Assembly: GCA_964016885.1 (NCBI GenBank)
Contig: OZ024753.1
Span: forward strand, 11,408,001-11,472,000
DNA length: 64,000 nt
Source: Eledone cirrhosa
Lineage: Eukaryota
Direction: 5' to 3'
Under the pieces are notes generated by a model, which was not told where the DNA came from, ran no database searches, and was given only the letters and a program-made list of their open reading frames with translations. This document shows positions 1,455 through 62,735 of the stretch, in pieces (the stretch's first letter is position 1; the number at the start of each line of letters is the position of its first letter). Made by a program: the position numbers and the translations under genes.

Positions 1455-1635
1455 GGTTGACGGCTAAGAGAAAGGAGTACTCAATACCGAAGTAGAGTGT
1501 TAATATTCATTTTATTAAAGCTGAATAGTGAGTCTTGTTTCTCCGGTGTTTCGCCTGTTTATCACAAGTTCATTAGATAAGAACAAGGTCTGATGATCCT
1601 GTGATAAACAAGCGAAACGCCAGAATACAAGACTC
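1455..1635. mobile_element. Fold-back mini-element with hammerhead-like motif (Penelope pLTR-derived)
   Basis: Inverted arms 1530-1577 and 1589-1635. The + arm reads CTGATGA(1590-1596)-TCCTGT-GATAA-ACAAGC-GAAAC. The minus-strand tail contains ACTCTACTTCGGTATTGAGTAC. Flanked by (CA)n. Confidence 0.65.
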
Positions 1636-1815
1636 CCTGTTCGCCCATAATAAAATGAACACACACACACACACACACACATACTTATTATATGTAAACA
1701 GTAAACGGAAACGGAAATGGTGTATGTATATGGCGGATTAGACACTATATTTATGTATAATAAATATATATAAGTGTTGGTACGAATGTTTTAATATGTG
1801 ATAGCTTTATATATA

Positions 1816-2442
1816 CTAGCAGCAGTACCCAGCGTTGCCTGGGTAGGTAAAATAATATCTGCTTTCATGAAAAGGTGTTGATCTTAGCGACGGCTTTTCG
1901 ATGGCTCATCTATGGCCACACACAGCCCATGTGGGGGAGGGTGGTGATGACCTCTATCACTGAGAAACGCGGGTGACTGACGAAGGGGCATGCTGTGGGA
2001 GGGAGTTTCGATTTTGAACAAAGTAGGTTGATTAATGTGGGTGCTAGAGCCGAAAAAGTGGAAATTTGAGTCTAAAAGTGGTATTTTTGAATATTTAAGC
2101 GCCTTCTACGCCGTCTATGAACAATAAATGCAAAATATAAAAGCATTACAGGATGTGCAATGGTAAATTCTATCTTGCTTTAAAATTTGAACGAAATCGG
2201 TGGCAAAATGTGGGAGCTGGAGCCAAAAATCTTATTTTTCGATACCTAAAAAAAGGTGACCCCTCTATCGACTTTTATCTTCAGAATAACCCCGGAATAA
2301 AAAAAAAACGATACATTGATATATAGAGAACACTCCCCGATGACTAATCTATGAGCTTGTAAAGTTTCATGAAAATCGGTCGTAAGATGTAGGCCCCTAT
2401 AGGTAATACACAGACACACACATACTTAATTTTATATATATA
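1816..2442 (-). mobile_element. Non-autonomous Helitron
   Basis: Minus strand ends with hairpin ACCCAG-GCAACG-CTGGGT (1827-1844), 7 nt, then CTAG (1816-1819) and T. The other end reads TATATATAAAATTAAGTATGTGTGTCTGTG. These are typical Helitron-N termini. Confidence 0.75.
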
Positions 2443-3257
2443 CAGTGACCAGTTGCAAAACACGTATATGTATGTGTATGTATATATATATGTAAACTTT
2501 TATATGTAATAATCTCCCACTAGGTTGAGATACAAATTTGGCTGTATTGTGCTGTGCTTTCTAGTAAAAATGCCACCAGTCGTAAGCAACTACCACACCC
2601 CTTCCAACTTGACCGCGACTACGTCACGATTTTTAGCCATTTTGAAATGAATTCTTGGCGCGATCGTTTTGGAAAATTTAATGTCAAGATATGAGCGAGA
2701 TTCCTGAAGAATCCGGCGCTCGAGTTTATATAATTATTACATAATTATTGGATAACTCAAAACACGGACGAAACCATGGTAGAGGTATTTAAGTGTATTC
2801 TATTTTCTCCTAGTTTATGTTAAACCTAATTCTGTTTAGTTGACTGTATCTAGGCGATTACGCTGTCGAAATATTCGATAAATATTCCGCTACAGCCGAC
2901 GCGAAGCGCTAGTTTTGGTTATTTGTTGGAGATTCCTTCATAGAAGCCTCATTCGTATAGCCTGGTCTATTCGATTTTTTATATAGTTAATTATGCTAAT
3001 TGGGAGAGGAAATATATACAGATATATATATATATATATATATGGAGAAGAAATTTATGAAATGGAAATGCGGGTATAAAGAATTTATTTATCGGACCTC
3101 ACAAACGAGGAAATTAATATATATATATATATATATATATATATATATATATATATATCGTACTGTATCATTAATGAAAACATATAAAATATTGAAACGC
3201 TAACGTTTAGAGCCCACAGTTATTGACAGAGCTGTAGCATGATGTCAAGCTAAAGGA

Positions 3258-3336
3258 TATTACAATTGTTTCGATATCAAGCCCAGGGTTCAATCAAGGT
3301 GACGGATCCGTATACTTTTTGACTTCTCGTCAGATA
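3258..3336 (-). ncRNA. Type I hammerhead ribozyme motif with long loop II
   Basis: TAT-CTGACGA-GAAGTCAA..(about 39 nt)..TTGATATC-GAA-ACAATTGT-A-ATA: intact core, palindromic stem III, GUA site, 3-bp stem I. Confidence 0.65.
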
Positions 3337-3591
3337 GGCGAGCTTATATGTGAAAAAACAGTTTGTACATATGCTGCAACACAGAATTTGACTTTTTAAG
3401 TCTCTCTTTCCCTATATATATAATAAAGGTGTGAAGAATAACAAGGATCAGCTATACAGTAACGTTTAGTCCAACTATTAACAAATGTTTCATTGGTCCG
3501 GTGTGTCTAAAAACTGCTATCCGCAGTGCGCCGCGACACTTGAATGATTGCCTTAAACGATACCTCGTTAATTTATATATATATATAGATA

Positions 3592-3788
3592 TAGAACACT
3601 AGAAGTTAATATCCGTAGTGGTAGAGCAGTCAGTCCATGGGACGAGTTAGGTTGAAGTGGTTACACAACAGTTACTTCACCATACCGAGAACAATTGTTT
3701 CACCTTAGCGGATCCTTATGAGCTGAGGATCCGCCAAGGTGAAACAGTTGTTCTCGGTATGGTGAACTAACTGTTGTGTAACCACTTC
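3592..3788. mobile_element. Fold-back mini-element family B (hammerhead-bearing) in (TA)n
   Basis: Inverted arms 3654-3717 and 3725-3788, with a tail at 3592-3653. A second copy lies at 59687-59860. Confidence 0.8.
3720..3755 (+). ncRNA. Minimal type I hammerhead ribozyme
   Basis: GAG-CTGAGGA-TCC-GCCAA-GGT-GAA-ACAGTTGT-T-CTC. Confidence 0.7.
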
Positions 3789-4544
3789 TATATAATATAA
3801 TGGTTTCTACGTTTTGACACAAGGCCAGCAATTACCCAGTGCATTACGGCTACTTTATTTTATCGTATATTATATTATATATATATTTGTATATACATAT
3901 ATACATACTTACATATATGGGGACAGGGTTGAGTATTTTTAGATACGTGTATCTATCTATTTGTATATAAAAGTTATTTATATATATTTAGATATGCGCA
4001 ATAGAACTGCAGTATTAAACGAAAGATATGAATCTTAATGTGGATATGTATCTAGTTTATTGCAACTAACTTACTTAGTATATCTAATATATCTAATATA
4101 TATTCCTAACAACCGCATACACATTGATCTTGAAAGTAAGTTCATTTCCCGGATACAGTGAAACGACAGTAATGGTTATGGAAATTTGACCCGTCAGCCG
4201 ATAGAGTATACCTTATATCCCCATCGTTTGCCATAGAATAAACACAAGAACCTAAGTAAGCAACCACAGCAACGTAGACATATCATACACTCAATAATAC
4301 TTATAAATATACATGATCTCTTATAGATGATCTTCAAAGAATTACGAAGCAGCAATGCGCTTACTCACTCAATCTTACTTACCTGAAAATTCTAACGTTG
4401 CAAGTTATATCAGCGTTATGTTAATAATGGCTACACTGAGACTATATGTAGTAAAATATAAAATAAAGTCTTCAATCACAATCAAAGATGTCCGCATTGA
4501 TATGTATTAAATGTACTGATCCGTCTAGCTAGCTTTCGGTGGAT

Positions 4545-60125: not shown

Positions 60126-61923
60126 TATATATATATTATATACACATATACATATATATATATCTATCACCTTGTTTTATAAAATAAAAATATTGTTTTG
60201 GATTGAACGTCTCACCACATCACTGACACAGTTCCCCTGTGAAATTTATGCTCAGATAATATAATATCATATCCACATCTGAAATATGTGAATTTAGAGA
60301 ACAAATTAAAATGAAAGAAATCACAGAAAGTAATGTGAAAACGCCTGAGGAAATATTTTGCATCCTACATTTTAAGAAATGTCTAACCAGTGCTCAAAAC
60401 GCAAGTAGGATTCGCAATTTACCAGAATTATCAGCTGTTACACGAAAGTGGCATACACACACACACACAGACACACACACAATCTTCTTTCTACAATGAA
60501 TGATTATTAAAATCTTACATAATACACACACATATATATATATTTATATATATATATATATAAATATTCAGTTTGTTTACAAACGAACAAAGCGGCGTTA
60601 TAATAAGCGTCCGCTAAACTGATACGTGCATATATGTATGTGTACCTGTATGTATATATATATATGTATATATATATGCATGCTACTGTACGTCTGTATA
60701 CATATATGTATGTACGTATACATACATACTTACATTTAAGTAAGTGCCGTACTAAGAGTGAAAAATGAAATTTCGTTTTCATTTTATTTCAACTTAATAT
60801 TCATACCTATATATATATATGAATTTTCATATATATATATACATTCATATATACACACACATATATACACCCATATATATATATATATATATATATATAT
60901 ATATACATATATATTCATGTATATATACATTCATATATAGATATATAAATTCATGTATATACACACATATACATACATATATAAATTCATGTATATATAC
61001 ATATATGCATATGCATATAAATTCATGTATATGCATACATAGAAATTCATGTACACACATACATACACATATATATATATATATACACACACATTCAAAT
61101 ATATTCACAGACACACACACACACACACACACATATATATATACACACACATTCAAATATATTCACAGACACACACACACATATATATATATATATATAT
61201 ATATATATATATGTACACCAACTATAGATACATTTGCAAATATATGCAGTAAAAGAGCTTTTATATATATAAACATTCATATATATATATATATATATAT
61301 ATATATATATATACCTACATTATATATATATACATGTATATATATATATATATATATATATATATATATATATATATATATATATATATATATATATATA
61401 TATATAAATTTTCACCAACTATAGATATATCTGCAAATGAAAGCAGCAAAAGAGGCTTTATATGTTTAATGTATATAATTTGGAAAATACAAGTTATCGG
61501 AAGATATATTTAATAGTTTGAAAGCTTTTCTCTCCCTCTCTCTCTCACACATGCATATATATATATATATATATATATATATATATATATATATATATAT
61601 ATATAAAGAATGAATAATAACAGGTAGACATCATAAGTTCTGCAAATAGTTGTAAATTTGCACATAGCATAACTAGGCTGTATTACCACCGTGGAAACAT
61701 TTGTAAGCACACAGAATAAATTACCTTTTTATGATGTCTAGCTGTTATTATTCATTCTTTATCTACACTCCGGAATACAGAAGGATCACGAACTAAGTTT
61801 CTTCAACAATTCTTCCATAACTCGTTGAGTAACCTCTTACCGTACGTCAACCATATCCAGTGTAGTAATTAACCATTACTACATCTAGGATAATCCTATA
61901 CCTAATATATATATATATATATA

Positions 61924-61987
61924 CAGGATGCCCCCAAAATGGATATGTGTATTTATTGGTGTGCATGCATGTTTATCGTACACCCTG
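61924..61987. mobile_element. Possible Tc1-type mini-MITE
   Basis: TA-CAGGATG...CACCCTG-TA inside (TA)n. Confidence 0.4.
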
Positions 61988-62089
61988 TATATATATATAT
62001 ATATATATATATATAATACTTCTGTGAGTAGGATAATTTATTCTATATGTGTACGTACACACACACACACACACACACACACACATACC

Positions 62090-62200
62090 AGTAGAACTGG
62101 TTTCTACAGGACTAGAACTACAGGACTAGAACTGTTTCATTAGAAGGGTAGCACCCTGATGATTACATTCGAACGAAACAGTTCTAGAAGAAGCCATTTC
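62090..62200. mobile_element. Decayed fold-back family D copy with hammerhead core
   Basis: CTGATGA at 62156-62162 then GAAACAGTTCTAG at 62175-62187; inverted CTAGAACTGTTTC at 62126-62138. Confidence 0.65.
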
Positions 62201-62352
62201 TCTCTCTCTATATATATATATATGTATATATATATATATATATATATATATATATAAATATATGTAGAAGGTGAGTAATATTGTAGAACAATAAAACTAT
62301 GCATATATCAAATAAGTAGCACTCAACAGTTGGTAGAACTGGAGTATATATA

Positions 62353-62543
62353 ATAATTGTTTCTACTTTAGGCACAAGGCCAGCAATTACCCAGTGCATT
62401 ACTGGCACTTTAATTTTATCGACCCCATCAGGATGAAAGGCAAAGTCAACCTCGGCGTCATTTGAACTCAGATCGTAAAGGCACGTAACTATACTGGAAA
62501 GCATGGCGTCCGACCCTCTACTGATACTGCCAATCCACCGCCC
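62353..62543 (-). mobile_element. SINE family A, full length
   Basis: Minus strand starts GGGCGGTGGATTGGCAGTATC; B box, central domain and tail present. Confidence 0.9.
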
Positions 62544-62595
62544 TATATATGGAGTGTGTGTATATATATATATATATATATATATATATATATAG

Positions 62596-62735
62596 GAGTC
62601 CAGAATTAGCCGTCGAAACGGCTTGAGCTCAGCCGTCGGGGTCTTGCTTGTTCCTATTACCCACTCTACTACCCTAAGTATTGAATACTTTGGTGCGTTA
62701 TGGTCCGCCTGGTTCCTTACCACATTTCCTTCGTT
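62596..62735 (+). mobile_element. Family E single long arm in (TA)n
   Basis: GGAGTCCAGAATTAGCCGTCGAAACGGCTTGAGCTCAGCCGTC...CCTTCGTT. Confidence 0.85.

Follow-up and report, generated by a model that had tools for sequence, protein, structure and literature searches.

Penelope-like retroelements (PLEs) of the Hydra clade are the closest described relatives of the elements treated here. According to the available text of PMC8557442, they combine a reverse transcriptase (RT) with a C-terminal GIY-YIG endonuclease (EN), a DKT motif, a CxCx5C linker, a hammerhead ribozyme in the pseudo-long terminal repeat (pLTR) and insertion into (TA)n; they have only one open reading frame (ORF), inverted truncated copies and a tail of 30–40 nt, and are 'generally' under 3 kb. 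In a Poseidon element, two internal sites at which reverse transcription starts form the boundaries of the tail; cutting and extension affect both target strands, and a protein dimer is predicted (PMC11167929). The available text of that paper places the starts of Poseidon_Ac within the ORF, in an AC-rich stem-loop, without mention of a conserved or repeated motif. The origin of PLE tails and inverted pLTRs is stated to be an open question (PMC8557442; PMC11167929). The present analysis concerns a small hairpin in Hydra-type PLE copies within a 64,000-nucleotide stretch of the Eledone cirrhosa genome (GCA_964016885.1, contig OZ024753.1, positions 11,408,001–11,472,000), referred to here as the window.

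More distant parallels exist. In long interspersed elements (LINEs) of the L2 and CR1 type and their partner short interspersed elements (SINEs), a small 3' RNA stem-loop recruits the RT and is kept by the non-autonomous partners; it is located 5' of the one start, which is at the RNA end, and it is copied. Non-LTR retrozymes are short hammerhead repeats that lack an ORF; PLEs are presumed to move them, and the available texts describe no shared RT-recruiting motif for them (PMC7229834; bioRxiv 10.64898/2026.07.22.740005).

The motif is a bulged hairpin composed of RCUC, two to five covarying pairs, a loop whose length is free, a UH bulge and GAGY, usually followed by RC. In full-length copies the 5' untranslated region (UTR) has the order hammerhead, hairpin 1, spacer, hairpin 2 and AUG. 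All TA-joined 3' ends were mapped in 11 reference families, with L241 and L242, whose hairpin 1 was unparsable, left out. Of 307 ends, 285 lie 0–13 nt 5' of hairpin 1 (129) or hairpin 2 (156), whereas 66 would be expected with equal use of TA sites; of the 156 long ends, 92 stand exactly 6 nt in front of hairpin 2, and among the 129 short ends 74 are 7–8 nt in front of hairpin 1. The fetching of loci by hairpin-1 patterns enriches long ends and cannot position them relative to hairpin 2, which is absent from truncated copies. The spacing from hairpin 1 to hairpin 2 (55–137 nt) and from hairpin 2 to the AUG (∼19–63 nt) varies, whereas the distance to the ends does not. The twin hairpins are thus likely to act as docking sites, each determining one of two internal starts of reverse transcription (twin priming).

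The type of element is already known, sharing with the Hydra clade the single ORF with RT and C-terminal endonuclease, the DKT and CxCx5C motifs, the pLTR hammerhead, (TA)n insertion, inverted truncated copies and a tail, which is longer here (∼55–137 nt). The twin-hairpin motif was not found in the literature covered, which included the openly available text of PMC8557442, PMC11167929, PMC7229834 and the 2026 retrozyme preprint. The main text of PMC8557442 names no hairpin or stem-loop, although its own consensus file shows the hairpin by eye. Two starts bounding a tail, extension of both target strands and a dimer would be shared with Poseidon_Ac; unlike in Poseidon_Ac, there is one conserved hairpin copy per end, located in the UTR. 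Unlike the LINE and SINE stem-loops, the present hairpins form a pair and are placed 3' of internal starts, and unlike the non-LTR retrozymes, two ORF-less families described below share hairpins with Hydra elements.

Copies of the hairpin in the window

A preliminary description of the window had proposed that ACTC-N11-16-GAGTRC recurs in the tails of different, unrelated hammerhead families. The recurrence is real, with six matches against 0.43 ± 0.62 expected and none of 100 shuffles reaching six. The positions first given were mostly right, apart from the first site, which was off by one base, and a looser copy placed at 43465. The eight sites first noted do represent several families, numbering five (three of them pairs): A (1477), B (16603, 33287), C (29803, 60052), D (59720) and E (43458, 62319). 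Besides the six strict and two looser copies, four further degenerate or long-loop copies were located. The features are as follows.

1477–1498, minus: hairpin 1 of family A, strict; UAC/GUA in the upper stem and a cUUCGg loop; sits in the long arm of an inverted insertion
1590–1617, plus: predicted hammerhead core of family A in the short inverted arm; core pattern, no Rfam match
3626–3647, minus: degenerate hairpin 1 of family D (further copy)
3723–3744, plus: predicted minimal type I hammerhead core in the short arm of family D; descriptor match
16603–16624, plus: hairpin 1 of family B, strict
29605–29666, plus: long-loop hairpin 1 of a further family (further copy); one lower-stem base mutated, intact relative in L303
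29803–29828, minus: hairpin 1 of family C, strict; full-length relative L113
33218–33240, plus: predicted type I hammerhead core, family B long arm; descriptor match
33287–33307, plus: hairpin 1 of family B, strict; full-length relatives L321 and L353
43458–43484, plus: hairpin 1 of family E, looser; CAG/CUG upper stem, one mutation (GAGT to GAAT); full-length relative L101
59720–59741, minus: hairpin 1 of family D, strict; GUC/GAC in the upper stem and a bulge of one base; in L132 a Hydra-type endonuclease lies upstream
59796–59817, plus: predicted minimal type I hammerhead core in the short arm of family D; descriptor match
60052–60077, plus: hairpin 1 of family C, strict
61767–61832, plus: long-loop hairpin 1 of a further family (further copy); 54-nt span
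62319–62345, minus: hairpin 1 of family E, looser; tail-only insert, no hammerhead upstream
62663–62688, plus: hairpin 1 of family C (further copy); one mutation

The host elements in the window are short and terminate in a microsatellite, mostly (TA)n, with the motif often in the longer arm of an inverted pair. Its distance to the terminus, previously put at 30–45 nt, is ∼23–74 nt. For family A neither an ORF nor a second hairpin was found. Type I hammerheads are predicted ∼25–60 nt upstream of the motif from descriptor matches. In the window Rfam gave no hammerhead or other family at gathering score, its E-value list being microsatellite noise, and on L362 and L368 it gave only three weak unrelated matches. 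In family C, the most abundant, the hammerhead appears by eye to have a U3-A8 core instead of C3-G8 (L113 4008–4090 and the family C copies in the window), and would therefore be missed by CUGANGA searches; such a variant is described in the available text of PMC4209133.

Other features of the window were noted in passing. Stacked insertions of different Hydra families occur in (TA)n tracts, the target being remade by each insertion (59690–60125, 32695–33350 and 29371–29960, and in L133 at 7669–8330). Remnants of other Penelope-like clades with CCHH-type endonucleases lie at 36716–37465 (minus) and 39885–40847 (minus), with tails lacking the hairpin where seen. Fragments of other non-LTR retrotransposons, of the restriction-like endonuclease type in tandem and of the type with apurinic endonuclease and RT, lie at 10129–13453 (plus), 45566–47817 (plus) and 33463–34439 (minus). 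A loose match at 17461–17480 (minus) was set aside as a look-alike because the upper stem and bulge are absent. It belongs to an abundant tRNA-SINE-like repeat (also in L041, L056, L062 and L067) with a central ACTC...GAGTRC, the same letters as in the hairpin halves. SINE superfamilies have conserved central domains, to which this repeat may be likened.

Structure, covariation and insertion ends

The pairing of ACUC with GAGU noted in the preliminary description holds, within a wider motif that includes GCUC/GAGC, GUUC/GAAC and loops of 7–101 nt. Genome-wide (3.0 Gb), a stricter motif pattern has 59,895 matches, compared with 156 for a reversed control. By first lower pair, the genome counts (control in brackets) are A-U 97,592 (7,363), G-C 23,328 (582), G-U 9,351 (2,707) and A-C 3,858 (1,496). 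Covariation was assessed on 39 automatically parsed family rows (28 first and 11 second hairpins), including ∼10 mis-parsed or doubtful rows that were kept in. Pairing at the three upper-stem positions, which the parse does not require, is seen in 84 of 117 cases, whereas 5,000 family swaps give 53 on average and 69 at most; position 5 pairs at chance level. A hand-picked set of 16 short-loop hairpins has G-C as its first lower pair in nine members and A-U in seven, and the first upper pair holds in 13 with three pair types; no shuffle of 500 reaches their covariation score, a type of score that is inflated by relatedness. The 3' half of the motif is nearly fixed in sequence over 7–8 bases, and a conserved T is present at −6 in 74% of the 39 rows.

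Outside the motif the five families could not be aligned, with none of 20 between-family flank comparisons beating shuffles (lowest p 0.08), while tails within a family score 54 and 70 versus 10–14. The families are related, and the motif might be a functionless leftover of common descent, the alternative that the preliminary description had set against its own proposal. The unalignable flanks, the stem covariation and the placement of the insertion ends largely refute this reading, against which the presence of the motif in metagenome relatives at 36–42% protein identity also speaks; it is now highly implausible. The first two observations support the proposed conserved cis-acting signal. That the signal is a DNA promoter element of the pLTR is very unlikely: internal pLTR promoters do overlap the 5' UTR in Penelope and Chlamys-3 (PMC8557442), and the nearly fixed 3' half would suit such a box, but neither compensatory changes between halves 7–101 nt apart nor a tie to insertion ends would be expected of it. 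A coding role was rejected because the motif is upstream of the AUG in all full-length copies; its length also varies by non-multiples of three. A SECIS element, splice site, B box and K-turn gave no fit when judged by consensus.

The second hairpin, mostly GCUC/GAGC, occurs in read-through copies just beyond the end point of the long arm. Confinement of the motif to the long arm, as first described, therefore applies to truncated copies, while full-length copies have the second hairpin just past the long end. The motif is also tied to the element end as first suggested, the fixed relation being to the end just upstream and not to the downstream end; the latter is probably set by the second hairpin, which truncated copies do not contain. 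Inverted insertions comprise 105 long+short, one long+long and no short+short pairs with three unclassed, compared with 53 long+short pairs expected for independent ends, and the long arm can be either of the two arms. The long+short pairing is found in 24 of 24 family E and 16 of 16 family B insertions, both families having been largely fetched by upstream patterns. Searches with canonical hairpin 2 patterns for families A, B and D gave three, four and four matches, with no clear read-through copy; family B was resolved by another route. In one family (L261 and L266) hairpin 2 closes a 101-nt loop containing a (TA)-rich stem and the hairpin 1 loop is ∼70 nt; despite these long loops its ends are still 6–7 nt before the hairpins.

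Host elements and their relatives

Walking outward from the motif led to near full-length copies of family E (L101) and family C (L113), each with one ORF. Pfam did not recognize the ORFs, so the domains were read from motifs: an RT with YRDD, the DKT and RxRW motifs, a linker of the CxCx5C type and, at the C terminus, an endonuclease that has no internal CCHH. Families B (L321, L353 and L349) and D (L132) are linked to the same protein type, and family A is without a linked ORF. On the basis of these motifs and linkages the hairpin is assigned to Hydra-clade PLEs. The families are consequently not unrelated, as had been supposed: four of the five link to Hydra-clade proteins, with N-termini 32–41% identical to that of family C when aligned and RT regions 42–43% identical. 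L314 has an 821-residue frame with YRDD and the C-terminal endonuclease, families B, C and D have a single ORF by linkage, and intact frames of 719–834 codons are common. DKT, changed from DKG, is present in six of seven aligned N-termini, the seventh copy being frameshifted at that point. The linkers read CNCPVKNKC, CNCPDRSIC and CNCLNKEAC, and a family D copy has the first C replaced; in the RWK-motif region RxRW is invariant (7/7) and is followed by K, R or I. Insertion into (TA)n is borne out in the Hydra families here. Unit length is ∼2.4 kb in L362–L364 and ∼3.7 kb in L232, and some families have 3' UTRs of more than 1 kb.

A census of fold-back elements, in which detection was motif-blind although loci were partly fetched by motif patterns, gave 203 records and 24 clusters of at least two members. 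The strict motif is present in 12 clusters. The other 12 are three simple-repeat artefacts, three variants identified by inspection (a one-base bulge, GUUC/GAAC, and a copy interrupted by a TA run inside it) and six without the motif. Two of the six lie downstream of CCHH-type, non-Hydra endonucleases and are tail-bearing and (TA)n-inserted, with the hairpin absent. Clusters C9, C12, C18 and C21 (L065, L030, L042 and L078) are fold-back, tail-bearing (TA)n families with neither hairpin nor linked ORF.

A metagenome scan gave nine relatives. The order hammerhead, hairpin 1, hairpin 2 and AUG is found in all four with a readable 5' UTR (two of them mutually close); two others have hairpin 1 after the 3' hammerhead, and three are without that region. 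One of these loci, L364, provides an out-of-sample case in which the element ends in (TA)n 6 nt before its own hairpin 2. Among six published Hydra consensi inspected by eye (PMC8557442, file S7), Hydra-1_Ajap has both hairpins, Hydra-2_Ajap and Hydra-2_Amil have a clear first hairpin and Hydra-1_Crog has variant forms, so that consensi with the hairpin span coral, sea cucumber and copepod.

Two ORF-less families retain hairpin 1 and the end spacing. The first consists of direct repeats of 572–603 bp (five copies; longest stop-free frame 63–101 codons, no blastx match), and the second has a hammerhead and is ∼545 bp long, with a clear hairpin 2. As a clade marker the motif detects ORF-less partners, and this genome holds over 100,000 of its sites.

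A putative enclosing helix joins the 25 nt that follow hairpin 1 to the 28 nt that follow hairpin 2, the pairing being better than with the segments of other families. Permutation p values are 0.011 for the ten families from the same genome, 0.0018 for 13 families including metagenome loci and 0.16 for the three metagenome loci; the value of 0.0001 for ten autonomous families refers to a subset picked after the data had been seen. The helix is only partly supported since it is absent in the 572–603 bp family and weak in several others. Its strength in autonomous families and absence in this ORF-less family, together with the position of the hairpins in the 5' UTR 19–63 nt before the AUG, would suit a translation or stability signal of the uncapped, ribozyme-cut RNA, bound by a host protein, with the RT starting at the nearest open U/A stretch next to such a bound or folded obstacle. 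This is quite unlikely, as hairpin 1 remains intact and the end distances unchanged in the ORF-less families, and the distance to the ends is far tighter than that to the AUG.

Proposed role in twin priming

The preliminary description had left RT recognition or priming and promoter function side by side. The nearly fixed distance of the ends 5' of the hairpins favours the former and not the latter. In the mechanism that we propose, the element protein, probably as two copies, as in the predicted dimer of the Anolis Poseidon protein, would bind both hairpins on one RNA, and the endonuclease would nick a (TA)n tract on both strands. The ends so exposed could then pair, each with the U/A-rich single-stranded stretch immediately 5' of one hairpin, and be extended upstream, so that each hairpin would set one start ∼6 bases 5' of its own base. 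The start before hairpin 2 would copy hairpin 1 and produce the long arm with its tail, whereas the start before hairpin 1 would not copy hairpin 1 and would give the short arm. Head-to-head joining of the two cDNAs would leave arms of unequal length, and in autonomous families the two sites may be kept close by a helix formed from the segments that follow the hairpins on their 3' side. If the hairpins mark the starts of copying, the lopsided, inverted shape of the insertions would thereby be explained.

Several observations weigh against this mechanism. Non-Hydra families make tails and inverted arms without the hairpin, which thus is not a general cause of tails. The fetching of many loci by hairpin-1 patterns excludes short+short pairs at those loci. 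Hairpin 2 is a plain 4-bp stem in family B, is degenerate in the 572–603 bp ORF-less family and could be located in neither family A nor family D; among the published consensi, by eye, the hairpin is weak in Hydra-1_Amil and not recognizable in Hydra-1_Obim (PMC8557442, file S7). The antisense strand has the lower folding energy in seven of 11 families, so that folding gives no preference to the sense strand, the two hairpins exceed a pair probability of 0.5 in only seven and six of 11 families, and G-U (12) and A-C (11) are equally common in the upper stem at the family level.

Since folding is strand-neutral and G-U is not in excess, a role in cDNA or DNA has to be considered, in which the endonuclease would recognize the paired motif in a longer intermediate and cut beside it, making the ends resolution cuts and not RT starts. 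Some direct-repeat and tail-only inserts that start at the short site would fit such cutting. The ends, however, enter (TA)n via the conserved T at −6, as expected from primer pairing, and the cUUCGg loop of family A fits RNA. The tail has been ascribed to endonuclease-mediated resolution in the available text of Craig 2021 (PMC8557442), and the D. virilis endonuclease needs the tail for recognition, as cited in Frangieh 2024 (PMC11167929), whereas in vitro, in the sole element so tested, RT starts coincide with both tail boundaries (PMC11167929). Taken together, a DNA-level role appears unlikely.

Twin priming at the two hairpins can also be put in a wider form, in which a pan-metazoan RNA domain of two bulged hairpins and the enclosing helix loads two RTs on one RNA and programs twin priming on both strands of (TA)n with a fixed 6-base ruler. 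This form is offered tentatively, as a possibility somewhat short of even. The hairpin pair is a first candidate for how telomerase's closest retroelement relatives recognize their own RNA. Should the wider form be correct, Penelope-like RTs, the sister group of telomerase, would have their first defined RNA recognition signal, which would also be a portable tag for RNA-templated insertion.

Two rearranged forms were also observed. A tandem array of ∼12 units, each ∼1.08 kb with a family B 3' end, is present in L355–L356 (G000:C1:83679853–83691778). In the chimeras L247, L249, L251, L244 and L246 the long end of one family is joined directly to the tail of another; these and tail-only inserts such as that at 62319 in the window could reflect template jumps at start sites or nested insertion.

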